Source of the DNA: a virus
Taxonomy: Duplodnaviria; Heunggongvirae; Uroviricota; Caudoviricetes
Virus record (IMG/VR): IMGVR_UViG_2778261673_000008
Span: 1 to 43,490 of that record
DNA length: 43,490 bases
Strand: one strand, 5' to 3'
Below the pieces are notes generated by a model. It searched no databases. It worked only from the letters and a program-made list of their open reading frames with translations, and had not been told where the DNA came from. The first letter of the stretch is position 1. The number at the start of each line of letters is the position of its first letter. The position numbers were made by a program, and so were the translations under genes. Positions 4,966-39,404 of this stretch are shown here, piece by piece.

Positions 4966-5262
4966 GCCGCGTCCCTCTGCCCATCAAGCTGATCAGCCAG
5001 ATCCCAGCGGGCGATAATTGCCATTGCCTCTCGCCGATAGGCATCCATCAGTTCTTCGAACTCAGGGCTGTCTTTAGCAGCCTCCAGTACTTCCTGACGA
5101 ACGCCTTTGCCTGTTACAACGTCGAAAGTTGAGGACAGTTGATGAAGTCGGATGCTCTCAATCAGTTCAACTTGTCGGTCATATAGCTGTTCTGACAGGC
5201 GGTAGTCCTTGTCGAATGCCAGCATGATTTTTTGAAGATTTTTCTGCTGATTAACGTTCATT
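4962..5262 (-). CDS. Hypothetical early protein (100 aa)
   Basis: Start taken at MNVNQQ (GGGAGGG RBS 9 nt upstream), not the longer ORF start; no recognised domain. Confidence 0.5.
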
Positions 5263-6905: not shown

Positions 6906-7721
6906 ATGAGCAGACATGCAACAGATTGGGCCTGGGAGACAGATCCAGGTAGCTCATCATTAAAGCTCATACTGCTCTCGATGGCTGACAGAGCCGATGA
7001 ATATAACCTCTGCTACCCCAGCATAGAACGCCTCGTTAAAGACACTTGCCTGAATAAAAAAACCGTGCAGGCCGGGCTTATATCGCTCATGAAAATGGGG
7101 CTTATTTCAGATACCGGAGAGAGAAAGGGAGCGACAAAAAGAGTGCGGGTTTTCTCTCTTAATATAACCAAAAACGGGAACATTAAAGGCAACCGGGAGG
7201 GGGGCAATGAACCCGAAAACGTTAATGTTCCCGAAAACGGGAATATACCCAAAAACGGGATGTTGAATGATCCCAAAAACGGGATGTTGAATGATCCCAA
7301 AAACGGGATCCAGAACCAGTCATATAACCAGTCATATAACCAAGAGAGGGAGAGCAGGACAAAAAACGGGGATTCTGTGCATCATGACCCCGGCGCAAAC
7401 AACGCCGTGATGAATAACTTTGTTCCTCCTGGTGGGCCAGGGCAATTAGGCAAATTTGTCATGCATGAACAATGGCAGCCATCAGATGACTTTCTTCGGA
7501 AAAGCTCATTGCAGGGGATCTACCTGGACAGTCTGCCAACGGCACAGGAACTTGCAGAGTTCAGAATTTACTGGATGGCTGAGGGTAAGGCATACCATCA
7601 GGCACAGTGGGAGCAGAAGCTGGCAAGGCGACTGCAGATTAGCAGACAGAAGCAATCAACATTACCTGATAACAACGTTCCGCACTGGAACAGCCCTGAA
7701 GCATGGGAGGATTTCTTGTGA
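6906..7721 (+). CDS. Replication initiator (lambda O-like role) containing iterons
   Basis: 271 aa; N-terminal winged-helix-like region; internal repeats PENGNIPKNGMLNDPKNGMLNDPKNG are encoded by DNA iterons; immediately upstream of the P-like gene. Confidence 0.65.
   Translation: MSRHATDWAWETDPGSSSLKLILLSMADRADEYNLCYPSIERLVKDTCLNKKTVQAGLISLMKMGLISDTGERKGATKRVRVFSLNITKNGNIKGNREGGNEPENVNVPENGNIPKNGMLNDPKNGMLNDPKNGIQNQSYNQSYNQERESRTKNGDSVHHDPGANNAVMNNFVPPGGPGQLGKFVMHEQWQPSDDFLRKSSLQGIYLDSLPTAQELAEFRIYWMAEGKAYHQAQWEQKLARRLQISRQKQSTLPDNNVPHWNSPEAWEDFL
7168..7308 (+). repeat. Iteron array (putative phage replication origin) inside the O-like gene
   Basis: CCC(A/G)AAAACGGGA repeated at 7168, 7212 (partial), 7230, 7248, 7272, 7296 with 18-24 bp spacing, followed by tandem CAGTCATATAACC x2 (7317-7342). 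Confidence 0.7.
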
Positions 7722-9509: not shown

Positions 9510-9940
9510 GCAAAATTAATTACCAGGCACTGCGTGAGGCGGCAGAGAAAGCCGGTGAAGATAAGTGGCAGGCTAAAAAAATAAATGGTGATTTTTTCGT
9601 TATTCGTCACGGTAGTTATACAAGACAGCATGGCTACACATCGTATCAACCCATTGCGGAGATTGATTGTAAGCCAGTCCGGGATTTTGTTGCCAAGGCT
9701 AATCCGGCTATCGTGCTGGAATTACTGGATGAACTGGAAGCAGCAAAAAAGCGCATTGCAGAACTGGAAAGCAACGAAGTCCTTGAAGTCGGAAATCAGT
9801 TTCTTGTTGTTCGCCATCCTGGGAAAACTCCTGTCATTAAGCACTGCACTGGTGACCTGGAAGAGTTTCTGCGGAAGTTAATCGAACAAGACCCGTTAGT
9901 AACTATCGACATCATTACGCATCAAAGGAGAGTGATATGA
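9506..9940 (+). CDS. Hypothetical protein (about 145 aa)
   Basis: GTG start after AGGAGG, overlapping upstream stop; translation MSKINYQALREAAEKA... Confidence 0.4.
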   Translation: MSKINYQALREAAEKAGEDKWQAKKINGDFFVIRHGSYTRQHGYTSYQPIAEIDCKPVRDFVAKANPAIVLELLDELEAAKKRIAELESNEVLEVGNQFLVVRHPGKTPVIKHCTGDLEEFLRKLIEQDPLVTIDIITHQRRVI

Positions 9941-10506: not shown

Positions 10507-10780
10507 CCTGCAACTTGCCGTCAAAGGTGAATACTTCGATGCCATGATTCGCAGAGAGAAAACGGAAGAGTATCGCCTGTGTAATGACTATTGGAATAAG
10601 CGCCTCGTTAACCGTAAGTATGACCGCCTGATTATCACAAAGGGATATCCGAAGCGTGACGATTCCAGCCGCAGAATTGACGTTCCGTATGGCGGATATG
10701 AAATCAAGACAATCACACATCCGCACTTCGGCGATAAACCGGTAAAGGTTTACGCGATAAAGGTAAATATTGATGGCTAA
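10499..10780 (+). CDS. ASCH/PUA-like small protein
   Basis: 93 aa; N-terminal GEYFDAMIRREKTEEYR resembles the ASCH fold pattern; AGGAGG RBS, GTG start. Confidence 0.4.
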   Translation: MANLQLAVKGEYFDAMIRREKTEEYRLCNDYWNKRLVNRKYDRLIITKGYPKRDDSSRRIDVPYGGYEIKTITHPHFGDKPVKVYAIKVNIDG

Positions 10781-11111
10781 ATCAGCAGCAGAGCGCAAAG
10801 CCGCTCAGAGAGCCAGACAAGCTGCATCCGGTGTACGTAAGCTGGAGATTGTGCTTGATGCTCAGGAAATTGAAATGCTGGAGCGTAACTGTGCCACGCG
10901 TCGCCCCGGGCGTGCGCCTTACGAATTTGGTGAGTATATAGCGTTACTGATCCGCCAGGATGATGCACGCGTGCGCGGGCGTATAAAATCGATCAGCAGA
11001 AAACGTTGCGGTAAGTGCGGCGAGAGAGTTCCAGTTAATTCATGCCCGTGTAATGGTGACTCGCAATGCTGGGTGACTAAAGGCTGGCATGAAACGAAAT
11101 TAATAGTGTGA
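10770..11111 (+). CDS. Hypothetical protein with Cys-rich C-terminus (possible zinc ribbon)
   Basis: 113 aa; C-terminal CGKCGERVPVNSCPCNGDSQC; immediately upstream of the packaging genes; stop codon lies inside the palindrome GTGACATGTCACG. Confidence 0.4.
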   Translation: MMAKSAAERKAAQRARQAASGVRKLEIVLDAQEIEMLERNCATRRPGRAPYEFGEYIALLIRQDDARVRGRIKSISRKRCGKCGERVPVNSCPCNGDSQCWVTKGWHETKLIV

Positions 11112-11160
11112 CATGTCACGAGTAGATTATGCATGATGAATTTGATGTGTTTTGAATACT

Positions 11161-11186
11161 GCCGCCAACTATGGCGGCTTTATTTT
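11161..11186 (+). terminator. Rho-independent terminator
   Basis: GCCGCC-AACTAT-GGCGGC followed by TTTATTTT. Confidence 0.7.
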
Positions 11187-11196
11187 GCATGGTACT

Positions 11197-11231
11197 ATTA
11201 CCACAACGGTAACTATTACCACGGTGGTTAT
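11197..11231. promoter_or_regulatory. Two operator palindromes immediately upstream of the small terminase gene
   Basis: ATTACC ACAAC GGTAAC (11197-11213) and ATTACC ACGGT GGTTAT (11215-11231, reaching the start codon). Confidence 0.45.
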
Positions 11232-11826: not shown

Positions 11827-13298
11827 CAGATGCAGCGTTATCTCCTGAAGAGCAGTTGATCGAGGATATTGCAGGGTTCACTCACGATCCGCTTGGCTAT
11901 GCCCTCTATGCGTTCCCGTGGGGGGAAGAGGGGACTGAACTGGCACATGCTTCCGGCCCACGTCAGTGGCAGGCCGATGCGTTCCGAGAGATACGTGATC
12001 ACCTGCAGAATCCAGAGACGCGTTATCAGCCGCTTATGCTGGCACGTGCTTCTGGTCACGGTATTGGTAAATCCGCATTCATCTCAATGCTAATCAACTG
12101 GGGCATGTCCACTTGCGAGGATTGTAAGGTCGTGGTGACCGCCAACACCGACAACCAGCTACGAACGAAGACCTGGCCGGAAATTATCAAGTGGTCGAAC
12201 CTTGCTATCACGAAAGACTGGTTTACCTGTACCGCTACCGCGATGTACAGCAATGATCCTGGGCACGACAAGCGGTGGCGAGCTGACGCAATCCCCTGGT
12301 CTGAGCACAACACTGAGGCATTCGCCGGACTACACAACGAGCGCAAACGCATCATCGTGGTATTCGATGAAGCGTCGAACATTGCGGATCTGGTGTGGGA
12401 AGTTGCTGAGGGTGCGCTTACGGACGAAGACACTGAGATTATCTGGGTGGCGTTCGGAAACCCTACACGTAATACCGGGCGTTTTCGCGAATGTTTCCGC
12501 AAATACAAACACCGCTGGAAAACTGCGCAGATTGACAGCCGGACGGTGGAAGGTACTAACAAACAGCAGTTGCAGAAATGGGTTGATGACTACGGGGAAG
12601 ACAGCGACTTCGTTAAAATCCGTGTGCGCGGCATATTCCCTGATGCATCTGAATTGCAGTTTATCCCTACCGGTCTTACTGATGAGGCAATGAAACGGGT
12701 GGTAACCGCTGCGCAGGTGGCACATGCTCCGGTGATAATCGGTGTTGACCCGGCATATTCAGGCGTTGATGACGCGGTGATATACCTGCGGCAGGGGTTG
12801 CATAGTAAGGTGCTATGGACTGGCAACAAGACCACTGACGATCTGATTATGGCGAAGCGTATCGCTGACTTTGAAGACCAGTATCAGGCTGACGCGGTGT
12901 TCATCGACTTCGGTTACGGAACCGGTCTGAAGTCAATCGGTGACGGCTGGGGGCGCACATGGCAACTTGTTCCGTTCGGTGGTGCGTCAACTGACCCTCA
13001 GATGCTCAACAAGCGCGGGGAGATGTTCAACTCATGCAAGACATGGCTGAGGTTGGGCGGGATGCTGGATGACCAGGAAACAGCGGACGATCTGTCGGCG
13101 GCAGAGTACAAAGTTCGCGTGGACGGTAAAATCGTTATCGAACCGAAGGAAGATATCAAAGAACGACTTGGGCGTTCGCCTGGTAAAGGCGATGCGCTAC
13201 TGCTGACGTTTGCTTTCCCGGTGTCAAAGCGCCTGCGACTTCCCGGGCAGCAGAACCAGCAAGGCAAGGCGCTTACCGAGTACGATCCATATGCTTAG
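11823..13298 (+). CDS. Terminase large subunit
   Basis: 491 aa; Walker A-like ASGHGIGKS and Walker B-like IVVFDEA, then nuclease region; GTG start overlapping terS stop. Confidence 0.85.
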   Translation: MTDAALSPEEQLIEDIAGFTHDPLGYALYAFPWGEEGTELAHASGPRQWQADAFREIRDHLQNPETRYQPLMLARASGHGIGKSAFISMLINWGMSTCEDCKVVVTANTDNQLRTKTWPEIIKWSNLAITKDWFTCTATAMYSNDPGHDKRWRADAIPWSEHNTEAFAGLHNERKRIIVVFDEASNIADLVWEVAEGALTDEDTEIIWVAFGNPTRNTGRFRECFRKYKHRWKTAQIDSRTVEGTNKQQLQKWVDDYGEDSDFVKIRVRGIFPDASELQFIPTGLTDEAMKRVVTAAQVAHAPVIIGVDPAYSGVDDAVIYLRQGLHSKVLWTGNKTTDDLIMAKRIADFEDQYQADAVFIDFGYGTGLKSIGDGWGRTWQLVPFGGASTDPQMLNKRGEMFNSCKTWLRLGGMLDDQETADDLSAAEYKVRVDGKIVIEPKEDIKERLGRSPGKGDALLLTFAFPVSKRLRLPGQQNQQGKALTEYDPYA

Positions 13299-14113
13299 TC
13301 TTTATTTTTATCCTCGAAACCTGATAATCCAGATAGAACACCAAAGTTATTAAAAACGTTTGGCTTACCAGATTTTAATCCGGATAAGTTGTGTTGCTCC
13401 AAAAAGTTGCTAATTGTTTGGCCGTTGCCAAGTGCAAGGCTTTTTATTTGAGATTTTTCAGGGTATTTGAGTTTGTATTCGTCGAAATCATTTTGGAGGG
13501 TCTTATATGCCTCATTCATTCTTCCAAGAGTTTCCGATATCTCTTTTAATGAATGATTTAGAGCTGCTAACTGAGCACTGGCGGATCTCAATTCGTCATC
13601 TTTAGCTTTCAACTCGGCAGTCAATTCCCCCATACTATTCTTTGATCGAATAATCTCTTCTTTCATCTCTTGGATGTCTTTTTCCGCGCCAGTCTTAACT
13701 TTGTCGTATGTAACATCTTTTTTAGCCAATAACCTCTGCAGTCTTGTTTCACGCTGGATTTTTCTTGCCTTCAGGTGATTTTCGATTGAGTCATTATTAT
13801 CAAGAGGCTTTGCTTGCCATACGTTAATGATATTGTTTACCCATGGTAATAGGCAGCAGATAGCAATTACAGATAAGCATGGATAAAACATAACAGTTTT
13901 CCATGTGCTGTTATCTGAGATATATGAAATTTTATCTATTATGTTTGATTTGCTAAAAAATAGATAAAGAATTGATTTCCAGTTGAAGGCGCACCAGGAC
14001 ATAACAAAAGCACCAAGCACAGGGTTTTTGGCTCGATTCACGGCAGTATTGGCAGTAGATAAAAACAGCTCTTTGAACGATTCAAACATGCTAATTACCT
14101 TGAAGTTTTTCAT
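13295..14113 (-). CDS. AT-rich moron: membrane protein with long coiled-coil domain
   Basis: Start taken at MKNFKV; two hydrophobic segments (about residues 32-53 and 73-96), then a 130-aa K/E-rich coiled coil; opposite strand to flanking late genes; operator palindrome 4 nt upstream of the ATG. Confidence 0.5.
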   Translation of the reverse strand: MKNFKVISMFESFKELFLSTANTAVNRAKNPVLGAFVMSWCAFNWKSILYLFFSKSNIIDKISYISDNSTWKTVMFYPCLSVIAICCLLPWVNNIINVWQAKPLDNNDSIENHLKARKIQRETRLQRLLAKKDVTYDKVKTGAEKDIQEMKEEIIRSKNSMGELTAELKAKDDELRSASAQLAALNHSLKEISETLGRMNEAYKTLQNDFDEYKLKYPEKSQIKSLALGNGQTISNFLEQHNLSGLKSGKPNVFNNFGVLSGLSGFEDKNKD

Positions 14114-14116
14114 GAT

Positions 14117-14133
14117 TATACCTTTAAGGTAAT
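14117..14133. promoter_or_regulatory. Operator palindrome TATACC-N5-GGTAAT overlapping the moron promoter
   Basis: Minus-strand reading ATTACCTTAAAGGTATAATCATG: palindrome includes a TATAAT hexamer directly before the ATG. Confidence 0.45.
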
Positions 14134-14148
14134 TTGCGGTCATCAAGC

Positions 14149-14172
14149 AAAAAAATGCCCGGCGAACCGGGC
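14149..14172 (-). terminator. Rho-independent terminator between tRNA and moron
   Basis: GCCCGG-CGAA-CCGGGC hairpin with T-run on the minus strand. Confidence 0.6.
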
Positions 14173-14249
14173 GAACTGGAAGCAATGAGTTATGCCTTCC
14201 GTGGCTGTACTGGTTTACAGCATGAAGTCATCGCAATGGCGTCCTGCTG

Positions 14250-14335: not shown

Positions 14336-14412
14336 TGGCGTGGCATGCAGGATTCGAACCTGCGACCAACCGCTTAGAAGGCGGTTGCTCTGTCCAACTG
14401 AGCTAATGCCAC
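14336..14412 (-). tRNA. tRNA-Arg (anticodon UCU), phage-encoded
   Basis: Hand-folded cloverleaf: acceptor GTGGCAT/ATGCCAC, D-arm GCTC/GAGC, anticodon stem ACCGC/GCGGT with loop CTTCTAA, T-arm GCAGG-TTCGAAT-CCTGC, encoded CCA. Confidence 0.85.
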
Positions 14413-28343: not shown

Positions 28344-30818
28344 ATGAGACAGGAATGTATACAAGCGGTCCAGCAGGCGGCGCAGCGCACGTTAACGGCG
28401 CGAGAAATACAGAACATTGAAGACCGCATTTATCGAAATATGCGCTCCATTGCTCGTGATGACCCGATGTCGTGGAGACAACTTTCCGAATCAGAGCGAC
28501 TATATCGTGCAGCACAATTGGCCTCTGAAGAATTACAGCGAGAAGCGGCATTAAAGAAACGTCGTGTGGCCCTCACTATAGCCGCACGTCAGAGATTGGA
28601 TAAATTTATCAATAGCTATCAAGGGGCTGATGGGAAACTTGGCGCTCTTAACCGTACTATTGCTTTTAATGCAGACGGTAAATCGAATTTCCTCTCTGTT
28701 GAGTCCAGAACAAAAGCTACTCGTGATTATGCATTGAGTCAATTGCAAGAGGCATTTGAAGCAGTTGATCCTCGCTTTTTTGGCCTGTTTGAAGATGAAG
28801 CTGGCGTGCGTGACCTGGTATATGAAATGCGAGGGCAAAATACTGGCAATGCTAAAGCAAGAAAAGGTGCTAAGGCGTGGAGAGAAGTGACAGATCTACT
28901 GCGCCGCCGGTTTAATGATGCTGGTGGGGACATTGGCTATCTCGAAAACTGGGGGATCCCTCAACATCATTCTATGGAAAAGGTTGGGGCGGTATCAAAG
29001 GATAAGTGGGTTAGCGATGTTATAGGTAAGCTGGATCGCAAATATTATATCCGAGCCGATGGACAACTGATGAACGATGCCGAGTTGTCTGCATTTCTTG
29101 GAGAGGCTTATAACACGATCGCTACTGGTGGGCTGAATAAGCTTACTGATACCGGAATGCGAATTTCCGGCGCACGTGCTAACCGTGGTAATGCATCACG
29201 ACAGATACATTTCAAAGATGCAGATTCCTATCTGCAATATCAGCAACTTTATGGCGATCGCTCTCTATGGGAAATCATGGTCGGTCACCTGGAAGGTATC
29301 AGTAAAGATATTGCACTGGTGGAAACATATGGCCCAAACCCCGATCATGTTTTCCGCTCTCTTCTTGATCAGGTGAAGGCAGAAACGGCAACAGCTAACC
29401 CGAGTAAAACCGGTAAAGTCGAGCGGCTGGCGAACAACACAGAGAATCTGTACAACTTTATTTCCGGAAAGACACAGCCTGTAGCGAATCCGCACATCGC
29501 GCGATGGTCTGACAATATCCGCAACTGGCTGGTTGCCAGCAGACTCGGATCCGCGTTGCTATCATCGTTCTCTGATCTTGGAACCATGTATCTGTCTGCG
29601 AAGGTGACCAACCTTCCAATGAACCAGTTATTCCGCAACCAGCTTGAAGCTATGGACCCAACGAACCGTACAGAACTTGCGCGGGCGCGCCGCGCTGGTC
29701 TGGCGATGGAATCTCTACTTGGCAGCGTTAACCGCTGGGCGATGGATAATATGGGGCCGTCAGTGTCTCGTTGGGCGGCAACGGCGGTAATGCGTGCCAG
29801 TGGGCTTACAGCATGGTCAGATGCGCACAAGCGCGCCTATGGCGTAACCATGATGGGAAGCCTGGGAGAAGTAGTGTCACGGACACCAGACCTTCGTAGC
29901 CTCGATGACTCTGATTTTCGTATCCTGAAAAGCAAAGGGATTACTGACACAGACTGGAGCGTATGGAAGCTGGCGCAACAGGAGGACTGGGGGAACGGTA
30001 ATAATACGATGCTGACACCGGAAAGCATTATGCGTATCCCTGATTCAGCAGTTAAACATCTTGGTGAGCCTGAGCGCGTGAAATTTGAGGCAATGCGTAA
30101 ATTGCTCGGTGCCGTAACTGAAGAAGTTGATATGGCTGTTATTACACCGGGAGCTCGTGAGCAACTGATAACCGGTTCTGGTATTCAGCGTGGAACATGG
30201 AAAGGTGAATTAACGAGAAGTGTTTTCCTGTTTAAATCGTTCCCTATCTCGGTTGTTATGCGTCACTGGTCACGCGCTATGGGTATGCCGTCTGCTGGTG
30301 GGCGTGCGGCATATATTGCGACGTTTATTGCCAGTACGACCATTCTTGGCGCTTTGTCGCAGCAACTTAACGACCTTGCGTCTGGTCGTAATCCTCGAGA
30401 GATGACAGGAGAAGATGCCGCAAAATTCTGGCTTGGTGCTCTACTGAAAGGTGGTGGTCTTGGCCTTTACGGTGACTTTTTATTGTCAGATCACACCAGG
30501 TACGGAAGCGGCGCGCTGGCGTCGATGCTTGGCCCGGTAGCTGGTCTGGTTGATGACGTAGTGAAGATTGCTCAGGGCATACCGTTAAATGCTGTGGAAG
30601 GGAAGAGTGAGCAGACTGGTGGTGATCTGGTTAAGCTGGGGAAAGGTTTGATGCCTGGTGCGAATCTCTGGTACTTGAAGGTGGCTCTCGATCACATGAT
30701 CTTTAACCAGATGCAGGAGTATTTTTCACCAGGCTATTTGCGTAAAATGGAGCAACGTTCGAAGAAAGAGTTTAACCAGACATACTGGTGGAGACCTCAG
30801 GATGTCACTCCGCAATAA
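28344..30818 (+). CDS. Internal virion / ejection protein (824 aa, gp16-like position)
   Basis: Large protein with hydrophobic segments in the C-terminal third; last large gene before the cargo island. Confidence 0.5.
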   Translation: MRQECIQAVQQAAQRTLTAREIQNIEDRIYRNMRSIARDDPMSWRQLSESERLYRAAQLASEELQREAALKKRRVALTIAARQRLDKFINSYQGADGKLGALNRTIAFNADGKSNFLSVESRTKATRDYALSQLQEAFEAVDPRFFGLFEDEAGVRDLVYEMRGQNTGNAKARKGAKAWREVTDLLRRRFNDAGGDIGYLENWGIPQHHSMEKVGAVSKDKWVSDVIGKLDRKYYIRADGQLMNDAELSAFLGEAYNTIATGGLNKLTDTGMRISGARANRGNASRQIHFKDADSYLQYQQLYGDRSLWEIMVGHLEGISKDIALVETYGPNPDHVFRSLLDQVKAETATANPSKTGKVERLANNTENLYNFISGKTQPVANPHIARWSDNIRNWLVASRLGSALLSSFSDLGTMYLSAKVTNLPMNQLFRNQLEAMDPTNRTELARARRAGLAMESLLGSVNRWAMDNMGPSVSRWAATAVMRASGLTAWSDAHKRAYGVTMMGSLGEVVSRTPDLRSLDDSDFRILKSKGITDTDWSVWKLAQQEDWGNGNNTMLTPESIMRIPDSAVKHLGEPERVKFEAMRKLLGAVTEEVDMAVITPGAREQLITGSGIQRGTWKGELTRSVFLFKSFPISVVMRHWSRAMGMPSAGGRAAYIATFIASTTILGALSQQLNDLASGRNPREMTGEDAAKFWLGALLKGGGLGLYGDFLLSDHTRYGSGALASMLGPVAGLVDDVVKIAQGIPLNAVEGKSEQTGGDLVKLGKGLMPGANLWYLKVALDHMIFNQMQEYFSPGYLRKMEQRSKKEFNQTYWWRPQDVTPQ

Positions 30819-31013: not shown

Positions 31014-31310
31014 ATGCAAGCTATAGGATTCATTGTTTATATCGTCGTTGGTCTTTTTCAGTTGGCAGCAATTATGGCTGGGCTTGAATCATGGTGGGGA
31101 TTGCACTGGATAATTGCAGCCCCCATTGCTTTCATCGTGAGCTATATTCCATTTGTTGGAGCGATTGTTGGTATGGTTGGCGCTGTGGATGTATGGCGGT
31201 GGGAGTGGTGGCAGGCTGGCCTTCTATTCTTTGGTGGGATAATCTTTGCTATTGTCTGCGGTGGAATGTCATCATTTTTCGAATGGCTATCATTCAGAAA
31301 AGGGACGTGA
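31014..31310 (+). CDS. Small integral membrane protein (98 aa, about 3 TM helices)
   Basis: Hydrophobic throughout with W-rich loops; stop codon lies inside the palindrome CGTGACATGTCACG. Confidence 0.5.
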   Translation: MQAIGFIVYIVVGLFQLAAIMAGLESWWGLHWIIAAPIAFIVSYIPFVGAIVGMVGAVDVWRWEWWQAGLLFFGGIIFAIVCGGMSSFFEWLSFRKGT

Positions 31311-31341
31311 CATGTCACGGGCCGCTTTCGCGCCCTTGTTT

Positions 31342-31503
31342 TTAACGAATGCCACCGCCGCCCGGGCGGGAATCCGCAGAACGCCCACCGCAGCGGGAGC
31401 CGTCAGCGGCAGTATCGCTGTCGTGCTGACAACGGCCGGCAAAGGCCTGAGTTGAAGCTACCAGAGACAACAAAACGAACAGTGCAGCAAATGCTTTTTT
31501 CAT
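31342..31503 (-). CDS. Possible small secreted peptide (53 aa)
   Basis: MKKAFAALFVLLSLVASTQAFA signal-peptide-like N-terminus; upstream TTGACG-N16-TATAGA promoter-like sequence; a competing plus-strand ORF exists. Confidence 0.25.
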   Translation of the reverse strand: MKKAFAALFVLLSLVASTQAFAGRCQHDSDTAADGSRCGGRSADSRPGGGGIR

Positions 31504-31573
31504 TGTGAAATTTCCATCTATAAGCCACCTCAATGTGGCGTCAATGAGTGTAGCACTGACTTTTGTTTCGTCC

Positions 31574-31599
31574 ACAAAAAAAGCCCGCAGCGCGGGCTT
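31574..31599 (-). terminator. Rho-independent terminator of the 31598-32137 gene
   Basis: AAGCCCGC-AGC-GCGGGCTT hairpin with 7-nt T-run on the minus strand, overlapping the stop codon. Confidence 0.75.
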
Positions 31600-32137
31600 A
31601 CCAAAACTTGTACCACGGTGATTTATCCTTCAATGGACAATCCTTCCATCGTGTGGCCAACCATTCATATTCTTTAAAATATGTGTTTATGTTTTCTTTT
31701 TCTCTAATGGCTTGTATAAGAGGTAGCGCAATCTGATAGTTATTTACAACGGAGCTGTAAAATACTTCCTTAATCATGGTCTCATCATAAGTTTTCCGCT
31801 TCACGCTCACAGCCATGCGTTCGTAGAAACCTAGACAGTAAATTATTTCTCTCTTCTCTGTCTTTTCTTCATCCGTAAGATCAGCCTGCCCATTGCTTGG
31901 ATACATATAAGAGCGGAATGATTTGTTCGATTCGTGAATGCGGCGCATAGTAGATAGGCCTTTCTTATAATCTACATCAAACCTGCTTTCACCAAGGAAT
32001 ACTGAAGTGTGTACTTTTCTCGCTGTATTTACATTATAAATAATAGTAGCGATAGCTATGAACAAGCCAAGCGAAACCGCGACTGCACTTACTATTTGAG
32101 CCACGGCCATGGCAAATTGCATTTCTTCACTTAACAC
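31598..32137 (-). CDS. AT-rich membrane-anchored protein of unknown function
   Basis: Single N-terminal TM helix then a 150-aa domain rich in Y/K/E; very low GC relative to neighbours; own terminator. Start GTG 32137 or ATG 32122. Confidence 0.5.
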   Translation of the reverse strand: MLSEEMQFAMAVAQIVSAVAVSLGLFIAIATIIYNVNTARKVHTSVFLGESRFDVDYKKGLSTMRRIHESNKSFRSYMYPSNGQADLTDEEKTEKREIIYCLGFYERMAVSVKRKTYDETMIKEVFYSSVVNNYQIALPLIQAIREKENINTYFKEYEWLATRWKDCPLKDKSPWYKFW

Positions 32138-32264
32138 AAACTGTCTCCAGACATGAAAACGGGGCCTAATGGCCCCGTCATTAAACTATCCGAATGTTAA
32201 ACGCCTTCGTACTCGTCAAATTTTCTCATGTGGGCTCCTCCTGTATCGGTGCCTAATCGCTATG

Positions 32265-32281
32265 GATCACCCGTGAGGTAA
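32265..32281. promoter_or_regulatory. Operator-like palindrome ATCACC-N5-GGTAAT
   Basis: ATCACC CGTGA GGTAAT between the Bro gene 3' end and the 32137 gene start. Confidence 0.35.
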
Positions 32282-32346
32282 TAGTAAGCTATTCACCTGC
32301 AATCTGTACAGAATTATTTAAAGGCACATCCCTGTGCCGCCGTCCG

Positions 32347-33057
32347 TCAGAAGAACCCTGCTTTGTCGTTGATATACTCCGCGTGGGTCTGGATATCACG
32401 CAGGCATTTGCTCACACCGACAATGTAGCAGAACATGGTGGTCAGCTCCGCCGCCGCGCCCGATACATCATGCCCGTCGTCCTGCAACTGATTCAGCAGA
32501 TTCATCAGCAATGAGTTCTCCGTCAGGCCGAGAACACCAGACGGCGAATGAATCAGACTGCGGTAGCCGGGCTTCAGTGGGGCACTGTAGGTTTTGTTCT
32601 CTATCTTCATTGCCTGCATCACTGCTGACGCCGTGGCGTTGGCTACCTGGTCGGCAACCATCTTTATGCGTTCTTCCTGCGGGAACGAGTTTTTAATGTA
32701 GCTTCCTGTTCGACGGATCTGAGGAAGTACCTCACCTGTAACCCATTTACGAAAGCGGTAGGGGATAGTGCCTAGTGTCACTGCGTCGCGGCAGCGGAGG
32801 ATCAGTGTGTAGAGGCCTGACTCGGAGATGATGTTGATCTCTTTTACTCGGCTGTCAAAAATTGCACGATGTTCATGCCCTATGTTGAACATAGACCTTT
32901 CATCATCATCCAGTTTTTCAAGTGCTTGGGTGACGTTTTGGATACGCAGCGCACTACAAACGTCTTGGGCTACAAACCATGGTTGGCCATCGATAATGAT
33001 GGAACGGATAGGGTTAACAGATTCAAATTTGAAGATGGCAGTTTGAGCATTAGCCAT
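32347..33057 (-). CDS. Bro-N domain antirepressor-like protein
   Basis: Start taken at MANAQTAIFKFE (GGAG RBS); N-terminal IFKFESVNPIRSIIIDGQPWFVAQDVCSAL is a Bro-N signature; C-terminal domain is paralogous to ORF 34206-34463. Confidence 0.7.
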   Translation of the reverse strand: MANAQTAIFKFESVNPIRSIIIDGQPWFVAQDVCSALRIQNVTQALEKLDDDERSMFNIGHEHRAIFDSRVKEINIISESGLYTLILRCRDAVTLGTIPYRFRKWVTGEVLPQIRRTGSYIKNSFPQEERIKMVADQVANATASAVMQAMKIENKTYSAPLKPGYRSLIHSPSGVLGLTENSLLMNLLNQLQDDGHDVSGAAAELTTMFCYIVGVSKCLRDIQTHAEYINDKAGFF

Positions 33058-33325
33058 GGTGGTTATCTCCACTTAGTGATTTTAATCACCACCGCAACGC
33101 CAATTACTGGTGGTGAACTGGACAAGGTTGGCGTACCGGCCTAAGTGGTACCGGTGTCCTTTCGGACCCCTGCCCAGCCCACCATAATTCGGATATAGCT
33201 GTGCTTAACGCATAAAAAAACCACGTCTGGCGTGGTATGCGCCACTTAGTAACCCGGGACGCCAATCCCGGCACTGGATTTTGCCAGTGCCCGATTACTA
33301 TGGCACAAGAGGAGTGCGATGTAAA

Positions 33326-34658: not shown

Positions 34659-37070
34659 ATGACGGTCTCAACCGAAGTCGACCATAACGACTACACAGGG
34701 AACGGCGTTACCACATCTTTCCCGTACACGTTCCGCATCTTCAAGAAGTCAGATCTCACCGTCCAGGTCGCTGACCTTAACGAAAATATTACGGTGCTGA
34801 CTCTGGATACCGATTACTCCGTTACCGGGGCGGGTACCTATTCTGGCGGGAATGTCGTGCTGATGTCACCGCTGGCCAACGGATGGCAGATTTCTATCTC
34901 GCGCGACCTCCCAGTTACCCAAGAGACTGACCTCCGTAACCAGGGGAAGTTCTTCGCAGAGGTCCATGAGGATGCGTTCGACAAGCTGACCATGCTTATC
35001 CAGCAGTGTTTCAGCTTTCTACGCCTGGCGCTGCGCAAGCCGTCGTTCATCGCGAACTATTATGACGCACTCAACAACCGCATTCGTAACCTTCGTGACC
35101 CGTCACAGGCGCAGGACGCAGCCACGAAGAATTATGTTGATGGGCAGATCGTTGACAACACCAATGCCTGGAAAGCTGGTGATGCCATTCTTGATCAGAA
35201 GATTGACAGTAATTTTGCGAGAACTCTACGGGTTCCAGAAAGCACTGTTGACCAACTAAGCCCGGTATCTGTTCGGAAAAACTCGTTGTTAGGATGGGAT
35301 AGCAACGGAAAGCCAATACCTGTTTTTTCGATGACAGATACAGCAGATCTCGCAATAAAGTTAGCATCTCATGAAGATGGTCTTGGTATGTCTTTGCTGG
35401 GCATGCCAGGGTCTGGATCTTTAAATCAACTTATTGGTAAGTGGACTTGTCCTGAGGCATGGGGCGTTATTACTGATTCCCAGCCAGACGCTCATGCTAA
35501 TTCTAAAAAAATGTTTAATATGTTTGAGTGGTTACGATCTTTAGGTGGCGGTGTAGCATATTTCACACCAGGTAAAACCTATTGGATTGATTTTATTCAG
35601 TTCGTACCCAGCAATGTTGTAATTATAGGATATGGGGCTACGGTAAAACAGATAAACCCATTGTCAATGTATGGTCGTGGTGGTTTCGTTTTTGGGAGTG
35701 GCAGAGAATGGAACTATAAAAAAGCAAAAGCGGCATACAATTCCGGTAATTACCCGTCTTCCGTTGCTGATTCTACGATGGCAGAGTTACCACTGAAATC
35801 TTACCTGAGAGATAATCAGTCTTATGTTCAGTGTGAGAAATGTAAAGTTTATGGCTTGCGCATGTCTGCAGTGTTTACTGATTCCAGCTATTGGGGAGGC
35901 TATGCATTTAATTGTGTTAATGCACAGCATATAAGATTTTTCGATGTGGTTGGTGATGGTTGGACTCAATTGTTTAACTTTGGTAACGATAGTTCTTCCT
36001 CTTCTCCATCTTGTTATGATGTAATTGCAAAAGGTGCTACCGTTGAAAAGGCGGATCTTGTTCGCACTTATTATGCATTTGGTTTTATTGCAAACTCAAC
36101 AGATTGCTGGATTGAAGATTGTGATCTACTTAAGCCTATGACTGCCGGAACTATTAATGGTTCAGGAGCTGCTACAAACTTTGTAGAAAACTGTGGGTTT
36201 AAAGATTTACGAGCTGCAAAATTAGGTCGTACAGTATCTTCGGAGATGGTTCTATTAAATAATGCAAAAGGCTGTCTTGTTGAGAATATAGATGTTGGTG
36301 ACTGCATTAATGGTGTAGCCACCTACTATACTGATGATTCATATAATGATGCTAACATGCCGAATATTATAAGAAACATTTCTGCATCAGCTGATAATGT
36401 TGTCGCTCTTCGTGCAAAATACTCTGTTATTGATGCATTTCATGGTAAGGGGGCATACATAAATGAGTTGTATTTCGCAAATAATAACGCAAGCGGAAAC
36501 AAAATAAATAAAAACCCTAAATCTATAGGCTTTGGTGGCACAAACCTGCAATCATGGTTTTTAACCAATAATACTGTTCTTGGTTGGTTCAGAAGATATT
36601 TTTATTTAAGACCATCAGAAATAATTCTGAACGACAAAGCAGACACATTATCATGGACATTTAACAAATTAGTATCAACAAAAAACGGTGTTGATCTTTA
36701 CTTCATGTGGAGGGTTCCAGATGATATAAAAGCTATTGATGATATAAGAGCTTTTATAAGATTTAACATTTCACCTGATCAGAATGCAGCAGCAGCAGGA
36801 TCTACTGTTGAAGCAAGTTTAATTCAGATGATATCGTTTGACGGAGATATAAATACAGATCCTTACACGGCGTTTTCTAATTCAAAAGTTGCTACATCTG
36901 GAGTTGAAAACACTACAATAGTAACTCAAATGGGGTCAACTGCCCCTGGCTTTGTAAAAATGGCAGATGAAACACATGGACTTGCATATAGTTGGTATGT
37001 GTTATTTAAAATGACACATAACGTAAATAACAATTATATGAAAGAAATCAGAATAGCGGGGTATAATTAA
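34659..37070 (+). CDS. Tailspike / tail fibre protein
   Basis: 803 aa; N-terminal segment of phage-typical GC content, then a long AT-rich C-terminal part with beta-rich N/G/S/T/Y composition. Confidence 0.7.
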   Translation: MTVSTEVDHNDYTGNGVTTSFPYTFRIFKKSDLTVQVADLNENITVLTLDTDYSVTGAGTYSGGNVVLMSPLANGWQISISRDLPVTQETDLRNQGKFFAEVHEDAFDKLTMLIQQCFSFLRLALRKPSFIANYYDALNNRIRNLRDPSQAQDAATKNYVDGQIVDNTNAWKAGDAILDQKIDSNFARTLRVPESTVDQLSPVSVRKNSLLGWDSNGKPIPVFSMTDTADLAIKLASHEDGLGMSLLGMPGSGSLNQLIGKWTCPEAWGVITDSQPDAHANSKKMFNMFEWLRSLGGGVAYFTPGKTYWIDFIQFVPSNVVIIGYGATVKQINPLSMYGRGGFVFGSGREWNYKKAKAAYNSGNYPSSVADSTMAELPLKSYLRDNQSYVQCEKCKVYGLRMSAVFTDSSYWGGYAFNCVNAQHIRFFDVVGDGWTQLFNFGNDSSSSSPSCYDVIAKGATVEKADLVRTYYAFGFIANSTDCWIEDCDLLKPMTAGTINGSGAATNFVENCGFKDLRAAKLGRTVSSEMVLLNNAKGCLVENIDVGDCINGVATYYTDDSYNDANMPNIIRNISASADNVVALRAKYSVIDAFHGKGAYINELYFANNNASGNKINKNPKSIGFGGTNLQSWFLTNNTVLGWFRRYFYLRPSEIILNDKADTLSWTFNKLVSTKNGVDLYFMWRVPDDIKAIDDIRAFIRFNISPDQNAAAAGSTVEASLIQMISFDGDINTDPYTAFSNSKVATSGVENTTIVTQMGSTAPGFVKMADETHGLAYSWYVLFKMTHNVNNNYMKEIRIAGYN

Positions 37071-39255: not shown

Positions 39256-39404
39256 CATGGCATTTTTCATGGTACTGATTTCCGGTGACGGTATATAAAA
39301 CGGTACGAGGAAAATTTAGCTTTAGAAAAGTGTTATCACTCAATTGGTTATGGCGTCCGTAAATAATTGAGTGGGAATGATTTGACCCTGCACTATGAAT
39401 GAAC

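Follow-up and report, generated by a model that had tools for sequence, protein, structure and literature searches.

A palindrome with a two-nucleotide spacer at operon ends and module junctions of epsilon15-like prophages, and its association with the PHROG 536 protein family

Background

Ribbon-helix-helix (RHH) proteins dimerise and contact DNA through a two-stranded beta-sheet, each 7-8-bp repeat often accommodating one dimer, and the combination of a small RHH-type protein with a palindromic site is a known kind of system. In this work we describe a palindrome of the form GTGAC-NN-GTCAC in a 43,490-nt stretch of viral DNA (positions 1 to 43,490 of the IMG/VR record IMGVR_UViG_2778261673_000008, Caudoviricetes; this whole stretch is called the window throughout), found there at the 3' end of a gene for a 112-aa protein of the PHROG 536 family and again at the end of the main late operon. 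It is a short dyad-symmetric DNA element under strong selection and tied to one protein family, and we propose, as a reading that is probable if only modestly so, that it is an operator-like site on double-stranded DNA for the PHROG 536 protein as its putative binder. New with respect to the known systems are the family, its site, the position of the site where operons end and modules join, and the single base by which it differs from the chromosomal site matS.

RHH dimers are able to read adjacent 7-bp repeats in direct or inverted order (PMC9499535). The described systems, namely omega (the ParB of pSM19035), CopG, Arc, Mnt, ParG, TacA and KacA, act at promoters or on long repeat arrays, whereas the phage motif offers a single pair of heptads per site, with the sites kilobases apart and mostly at gene ends. 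Furthermore, we know of no C-terminal Cys-rich module, such as the one present in the phage protein, in the omega, CopG, Arc, Mnt, ParG or antitoxin RHH families.

On the DNA side, a very similar element is matS, which is concentrated in the Ter macrodomain of the host chromosome and is bound by the host protein MatP, the organiser of this macrodomain. In E. coli it comprises 13 bp, GTGAC-RNY-GTCAC (PMC6907758 Table 2; PMC3603311), and thus has the same arms as the phage motif, but a spacer of 3 rather than 2 nt. Bobay and co-workers, who found matS in none of 500 prophages of Escherichia and Salmonella, argued for counter-selection against it there (PMC3603311); the phage motif, in contrast, is enriched.

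Two further comparisons concern phages themselves. The centromere of N15 consists of the SopB sites IR1-IR4, GTGCGACC-NN-GGTCGCAC (PMC7205306 Table 4), which resemble our motif in being a handful of identical palindromes dispersed in a phage genome, some of them inside or beside essential genes. However, they differ in sequence, their binder is a helix-turn-helix protein of the ParB type, the N15 copies of our motif lie at other positions and, unlike N15, most phages with the motif integrate and lack partition genes, so the motif is not a SopB centromere. The linkers and 'moron' cassettes of mosaic phages are similar in that a short conserved sequence beside a terminator marks the exchange of cargo in the opposite orientation, but that concept does not include one palindrome shared by unrelated phage groups or tied to the gene of one protein.

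Results

A palindrome at fixed places in epsilon15-like phages

Escherichia phages HEMP4, phiv142-3 and phiV10 share 96-98% identity with the region; for Enterobacter phage Tyrion, the Salmonella SPN1S group and Klebsiella phage BUCT711 the figure is 75-81%. Judged by these identities, the window is therefore an epsilon15/phiV10-like podovirus (Uetakevirus) prophage of E. coli. Members of this group carry the motif at up to three set positions: the end of the last early gene (site 1; the regulator site), the stretch after terL (site 2) and the end of the main structural operon (site 3). The copies in epsilon15, phiV10, Tyrion and TL-2011b are listed in Table 1, and site 3 is found at the homologous place in BUCT711 as well. 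Flank identity in these five phages is no more than 70-80%, yet the 12-mer is kept exactly. Of 80 close IMG/VR relatives, 75 have the regulator-gene copy and about 50 have the one after terL too. Besides this second copy, relatives carry a small minus-strand gene after terL. The window has no copy after terL and holds a different insert there, with a 296-aa minus-strand open reading frame (ORF; PHROG 4780, function unassigned) at 13295-14185 and a minus-strand tRNA-Arg(TCT) gene at 14336-14412.

The 12-mer core, GTGACATGTCAC, occurs exactly twice in the window, at 11108-11119 and 31307-31318, and the stretch common to both copies is 13 bp long, GTGACATGTCACG. An earlier reading of the letters alone had noticed site 3 as the second copy of a palindrome that overlaps the stop codon of a membrane-protein gene; both points hold, the palindrome itself is real, and only its coordinates (31307-31320) were off by one (see Table 1). 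The TGA at 31308-31310 within site 3 is the stop of the ORF 31014-31310, and the TGA at 11109-11111 within site 1 is the stop of the PHROG 536 gene, in the same register.

From the window sequence alone the case for function is weak. Palindromes of 12 bp (11 found, 10.6-12 expected by chance) and of 14 bp (3 found, 2.7-3.1 expected) are as numerous as in random sequence, and one 12-bp palindrome is present twice in 2.4% of Markov shuffles. Comparative sequence evidence, however, indicates that the motif is far more than chance, because it is conserved at homologous places in relatives and present in unrelated phage groups.

At the terL and late-operon sites the order is gene stop, palindrome, a gap of 0-3 nt, terminator hairpin and T run, on the minus strand in the case of the terL site. 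The gap grows to 11 nt in BUCT711 and to 41 nt at the regulator-gene site of the window. The phiV10 record annotates the stretch homologous to 31319-31343 as a terminator, and the epsilon15 record does the same for the homologue of the hairpin at 11161-11186. In the window the stem 31319-31335 reads GGCCGC...GCGCCC, a single change from the perfect GGCCGCTTTCGCGGCC of relatives that weakens the plus-strand hairpin. The motif is not annotated in the records of epsilon15, phiV10 or N15, and literature searches with the exact 12-mer returned no relevant paper on it (the epsilon15 genome paper lay outside their coverage).

Two deposited records end inside the regulator-end copy: that of phiV10 is cut right after the TGA, and that of Tyrion exactly at the dyad centre. 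We rejected the idea that these ends mark a genome end or pac site, since the phiV10 cut follows the stop of the last gene and was therefore taken as the choice of the depositors; the paper on the packaging proteins of epsilon15 contains nothing relevant to the palindrome in such a role.

Geometry of the motif

The arms GTGAC and GTCAC are invariant and are separated by exactly 2 nt, while the two central bases vary freely (AT, TG, CA, CC, GG, GC, AC). Only the 2-nt spacer is enriched; in the same sequences, the other lengths (0, 1 and 3-6 nt) either do not occur or do not rise above background. The combination of a free centre with fixed arms fits a dimeric DNA binder. Alternatively, the motif can be parsed as the inverted heptads YGTGACN and NGTCACR and, like RHH operators, which are built of short repeats at a fixed spacing, it consists of inverted 5-bp arms whose centres lie 7 bp apart. 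Some sites fall within coding regions, as in N15 repA and in gp08 and the cII-like gene of ZF40.

Occurrence in unrelated phages and linkage to the PHROG 536 gene

Every phage group examined that encodes a PHROG 536 homologue carries the motif or a variant of it (Table 1). Phages with the gene have one to three copies, typically three, one of which usually overlaps or adjoins the gene's 3' end. The strongest enrichment is seen in the N15-like loci, where 105 sites occur in 883 kb against 0.84 expected. In addition to the gene-end copy, nearly all of these loci have the repA copy and some have the third site. In N15, the copy at the end of gene 46 abuts the ribosome-binding site (Shine-Dalgarno sequence) of gene 47, and by our own reading the site upstream of the antirepressor operon would fill the 17-bp spacer of a promoter-like TGTGCA/TAAAAT pair on the minus strand. 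The N15 copies, of the form CGTGAC-YR-GTCACG, lie unannotated at 28550-28563, 33237-33250 and 39268-39281, and all are conserved in N15-like IMG/VR contigs.

Two of the exact copies in ZF40, at 5125-5136 and 7622-7633, lie inside gp08 and the cII-like gene and bracket the cI-cro-cII immunity region; a ZF40-like stretch (L161) likewise has two exact copies in predicted coding sequence, at 623-636 and 2732-2745. In Aeromonas phage 13AhydR10PP the variant copies are at 116, 809 and 2563, within 2.6 kb of the gene and one of them on the other strand. Neither the PHROG 536 gene nor any site of the motif was found in lambda and P22. Lambda contains two GTGAC-N-GTCAC sequences with a 1-nt spacer, at 9747 and 19010, where the coding sequence translates as ..VTVT..; a codon effect rather than a signal probably accounts for both.

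The association was also approached from the side of the motif, with 80 IMG/VR stretches chosen solely because they contain TGTGACATGTCACA. A homologue is encoded in 20 of them, and in 13 of these 20 the motif lies -1 to +12 nt from its stop; altogether, 53 of the 80 stretches come from phage types that carry the gene. Another prophage type (contigs L168, L131 and L157) has two copies 3.5-4 kb apart, one of which covers the stop of a 75-85-aa helix-turn-helix-like ORF. In the covered part of these contigs no PHROG 536 homologue was found, and the contigs have no match in the phage collection; for the gene-less contexts L168 and L142, no matching annotated phage was found.

The PHROG 536 protein

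The PHROG 536 family comprises hundreds of clusters in Enterobacterales and Vibrio, named no more precisely than 'hypothetical protein' or 'transcriptional regulator'; PHROGs labels the 112-aa protein a transcriptional regulator. The protein has no sequence match in Pfam, NCBIfam or the PDB and no Pfam RHH family scores above threshold, while one Vibrio homologue has a sub-threshold Pfam match to RepB-RCR_reg. An AlphaFold2 model based on an alignment spanning the enterobacterial, N15 and Vibrio branches reached a predicted local distance difference test score (pLDDT) of 82, whereas an earlier run with a shallow alignment (pLDDT 55) was unusable. The model displays a basic N-terminal helix, an extended segment (residues 22-28), two helices (30-42 and 52-74) and a Cys-rich module with C79, C82, C91, C93 and C99, of which C79 and C82 are invariant and C99 is nearly so. 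The N-terminal part looks RHH-like in this model; a Foldseek search against the PDB gave nothing below E = 1.

Mosaic junctions at the motif

The sequence-only reading had asked whether related phages break synteny exactly at the motif, and they do: position 31306 is exactly where the window becomes homologous to phiV10, TL-2011b and Phi05_1387. The junction region is matched by 527 of 5426 complete E. coli genomes, i.e. the prophage junction is present in about 10% of them. In a sample of 40 of the 530 matching genome records, spread evenly, 17 alignments start at base 1 or 2 of the palindrome (query 207/208, window 31306/31307) and another 6 within it or at its right border. To the left of site 3 lies the 98-aa protein gene in the window and BUCT711, p21 in phiV10, gp18 in epsilon15, gp19 in Tyrion and ant in TL-2011b. 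The terL site has at least six different right-hand flanks, starting 0-7 nt from the motif, and the regulator site has two classes of right flank, each starting just past it. Overall, relatives cease to be homologous 0-7 nt from the motif at each of the three places, and sequence comparison thus identifies the motif as lying where gene modules are swapped between phages.

The finding that would have spoken against a constraint, namely shared flanking genes without the palindrome, was not seen. EC.W1-9 retains the terminator and lacks the palindrome at the late-operon place, and Klebsiella phage ST512-KPC3phi13.3 has only the right half, with the junction at the dyad; both, however, also differ in the left flank.

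Site 3 was further described as the edge between the co-directional late operon and a reverse-oriented cargo island. The genes at 31342-33072 are indeed on the minus strand. However, structural genes resume with the tailspike gene (34659-37070), and therefore site 3 is the end of the main late operon only and not of all structural genes.

Table 1. Features of the window and copies of the motif in other phages
Sequence	Feature	Position	Strand	Remarks
Window	PHROG 536 gene (112-aa protein)	10773-11111	+	homologue of epsilon15 gp49 and N15 gp46; last early-right gene
Window	palindrome, site 1, TGTGACATGTCACG	11107-11120		about 120 bp upstream of terS
Window	intrinsic-terminator-like hairpin GCCGCCAACTATGGCGGC then TTTATTTT	11161-11186	+	downstream of site 1, between PHROG 536 gene and terS
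Window	PHROG 3075 gene (98-aa hydrophobic protein)	31014-31310	+	last gene of rightward block; variable cargo left of motif
Window	palindrome, site 3, CGTGACATGTCACG	31306-31319		perfect 14 bp, two inverted GTGAC arms 2 nt apart
Window	intrinsic-terminator-like hairpin GGGCCGCTTTCGCGCCC then TTGTTTTT	31319-31343	+	abuts site 3 palindrome directly
Window	PHROG 14503 gene (53 aa, 'transmembrane anchored protein')	31342-31503	-	signal-peptide-like start; first gene of cargo block
Window	possible third site in the window, CGTGACCCGTCACA	35094-35107		in tailspike gene, reads ..RDPS..; arms intact, centre CC
epsilon15	after terL	2142		
epsilon15	structural operon end	19517		end of gp18
epsilon15	regulator gene end	39612		end of gp49
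phiV10	after terL	2262		
phiV10	structural operon end	19493		
phiV10	regulator gene end			imperfect GTGACATGTTAC, split by record ends
Tyrion	after terL	2702		
Tyrion	structural operon end	20377		
Tyrion	regulator gene end			split at dyad by record ends
TL-2011b	after terL			none found
TL-2011b	structural operon end	32282		
TL-2011b	regulator gene end	11500		
Pectobacterium phage ZF40 (myovirus)	protein 67% identical			TGTGACATGTCACA starts 2 nt past gene stop; two more exact copies
N15 (linear phage-plasmid)	protein about 35% identical			CGTGACTGGTCACG over gene 46 stop; repA copy; copy between gene 33 and antirepressor operon
49 N15-like IMG/VR loci	protein 76-100% to N15 gp46			gene-end copy (CGTGAC-NN-GTCACG over stop codon) in 49/49
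Yersinia P2-like phage	protein about 40% identical			one exact copy
Vibrio siphophage K303	protein 31% identical			three copies (about 0.04 expected), one of them 20 nt before terS
Aeromonas phage 13AhydR10PP	protein 30% identical			three copies of asymmetric variant GTGACCGGACAC, one 25 nt upstream of gene

Discussion

We propose that the palindrome is recognised sequence-specifically, as double-stranded DNA, by a protein, and we infer from the sequence data that this binder is the PHROG 536 protein. One RHH dimer would sit on each arm, i.e. on the heptads YGTGACN and NGTCACR, in the way omega-type proteins occupy adjacent 7-bp repeats. In epsilon15-like phages the sites other than that of the gene itself close the terS-terL block and the main structural operon and lie beside intrinsic terminators. 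The role at site 3 is speculative. Our preferred guess is that the bound protein, as a tetramer, would act as a roadblock or insulator that backs a bidirectional terminator separating the late operon from the convergent cargo genes. Alternatively, it could bridge distant sites into a loop, such as site 3 with the site 20 kb upstream.

Several observations weigh against this proposal. The link between the protein and the motif comes from co-occurrence in sequence data, and 27 of the 80 motif-containing stretches are not tied to the gene, although only part of each contig was covered. Residues 22-28, the presumed DNA-reading beta-strand, are poorly conserved across the branches, which is odd given that the arms of the motif are identical. 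The epsilon15-like sites are not at promoters, so a classical role of repressor or activator is a misfit, and the gene belongs to the early-right operon, which should be silent in the lysogen. As judged from the genomes of EC.W1-9 and ST512-KPC3phi13.3, site 3 is dispensable, and both the roadblock and the loop are guesses.

In a first alternative, the motif would be a short conserved linker at which related phages exchange cargo by recombination, or a hotspot of breakage, with no dedicated binder. The precise breaks of homology at all three sites, the variety of the flanks (at least six downstream genes at site 2, two right-flank classes at site 1, several upstream genes at site 3) and the ST512-KPC3phi13.3 junction at the dyad centre are all what such a linker would produce. 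We nonetheless consider it unlikely. A length of 12-14 bp is very short for homologous exchange, and one sequence at three places per genome would invite deletions of essential genes. Moreover, a linker leaves unexplained the sites in repA and the cII-like gene, the strict 2-nt spacer with a free centre, and the joint presence of the motif and the same protein in phages with no neighbouring genes in common. The pile-up of junctions is equally expected beside any selected element in dispensable DNA and requires no special recombination mechanism: if a site is under selection and the cargo next to it is dispensable, recombination junctions would collect at the edges of the site. The site thus looks like a module boundary because it is a selected element flanked by dispensable cargo.

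The second alternative places the function in RNA, as a hairpin with the stem GUGA/UCAC and a 4-nt loop that aids termination, stabilises the mRNA or is bound by the phage protein so as to control the next gene. The location of the motif in epsilon15-like phages, 0-41 nt upstream of an intrinsic terminator and in the working direction of that terminator, agrees with this possibility, as do the N15-like copy that abuts the Shine-Dalgarno sequence of gene 47 and a minus-strand scan of the window, which lists the motif as a terminator-like hairpin followed by TCCCTTTTCT. On the other hand, neither compensatory nor G-U changes appear in the stem over large evolutionary distances, and the bases closing the loop do not vary either. 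In the Aeromonas variant one stem pair is broken in each of the three copies, and a non-complementary change shared by every copy argues against a hairpin. Some sites have no terminator nearby (in ZF40, N15 and K303) or lie inside genes, the region folds no better than shuffled sequence (z = -0.3 and -1.1), and Rfam has no match at 31306-31319 even with E up to 1. Only the window has the T-rich minus-strand tail. Altogether, we regard an RNA element as quite unlikely. The narrower idea that the palindrome is itself an intrinsic terminator was rejected: on the plus strand the next element is another hairpin and not a run of T's, and on the minus strand the tail that follows the 5-bp stem is not conserved. 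The true terminator is the adjacent element at 31319-31343.

The near-identity with matS raises a further, quite doubtful possibility, namely a miniature matS-like system of the phage, in which an RHH/zinc protein reads a 12-bp version of matS that is not bound by host MatP and, as MatP does with its own, bridges the one to three sites of a genome. The 20-kb late operon between 11107 and 31319 would then be looped out; such a system might organise the phage DNA, insulate it or position it, or might disturb the MatP-dependent functions of Ter, MukBEF or the divisome. The resemblance to matS could also be a coincidence of 5-bp arms, a consequence of similar DNA reading or a deliberate near-miss of the host site. 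The proteins themselves are not alike: MatP has a four-helix bundle and a coiled coil, whereas the phage protein model exhibits neither and has the Cys-rich module, and the sequence similarity between the two is not significant (hhalign probability 0.1).

If the binder were instead a host protein common to Enterobacterales and Vibrionaceae, MatP would be the obvious candidate, and the shared arms speak for it, but we find this very doubtful. The spacer is 2 nt at all sites, and the enterobacterial phages examined have no site with the 3-nt spacer of matS: there is none in the window, phiV10, Tyrion or the Yersinia phage, and none in about 1.5 Mb of stretches from epsilon15-like and N15-like relatives. 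Single 3-nt-spacer sites were found in Vibrio K303 and in the loci picked by the motif. A site bound by MatP would be avoided in prophages rather than enriched, in agreement with the absence of true matS from the 500 prophages mentioned above (PMC3603311). Finally, the motif tightly tracks a phage gene, including the overlap with the stop codon in all 49 N15-like loci, while lambda and P22 infect the same hosts and yet lack it.

That the two copies are an ordinary, functionless palindrome repeated by chance, although allowed by the palindrome counts and by the frequency of duplicated 12-mers in shuffles of the window, is hardly credible in view of a position kept across about 25% flank divergence, the excess of sites in the N15-like loci and the enrichment of a single spacer length.

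The proposed pairing of protein and site would assign a likely DNA target to a widespread but uncharacterised phage family (PHROG 536, including epsilon15 gp49 and N15 gp46). The motif would also explain why the mosaic junctions of epsilon15-like prophages fall at one precise sequence. For chromosome biology it raises the question of why prophages avoid true matS while some of them are enriched in a motif one base shorter. In N15-like phage-plasmids, the conserved sites in repA and ahead of the antirepressor operon hint that replication and induction are under a further layer of control that has gone unrecognised.

Other features of the locus

Three known types of DNA element were compared with the palindrome and rejected. 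The first is the CRP/FNR site, as the spacing in TGTGA-N4-TCACA is wrong; the cores of CRP and FNR have the 4-N6-4 form. The second is the sigma-70 promoter, in that GTGACA resembles a -35 hexamer, but only weak matches (9 of 12) were obtained, no commoner than in shuffles. The third is the LexA box or the 'repressor' operator of epsilon15, TTACC-N6-GGTAA, which is a different motif and is dealt with below.

The cargo block at 31342-33072 encodes a small secreted protein, a DUF4760 protein and a Bro-N antirepressor-like protein. The 53-aa minus-strand gene at its beginning converges on site 3 and its terminator. In the window and its relatives the cargo to the left of the motif is variable as well: a homologue of the 98-aa gene occupies the same place in BUCT711 and is absent from phiV10 and TL-2011b. 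The genes of the window follow the order of the early-right operon, terS, terL, the minus-strand insert, a block from the portal to the injection proteins ending at 31310, the cargo block and the tailspike gene. The possible site in the tailspike gene is shared with one diverged IMG/VR relative (L156) and has no counterpart in phiV10, epsilon15, Tyrion or TL-2011b; it may be fortuitous.

Downstream of site 1 and its hairpin, the sequence TTACCACAACGGTAA at 11198-11212, which is part of a direct repeat ACTATTACCAC around 11194-11222, fits the TTACC-N6-GGTAA 'repressor' sites annotated in epsilon15. One of the annotated epsilon15 sites is found at the same place upstream of terS, which suggests that the prophage repressor may act directly on a promoter of the packaging genes.
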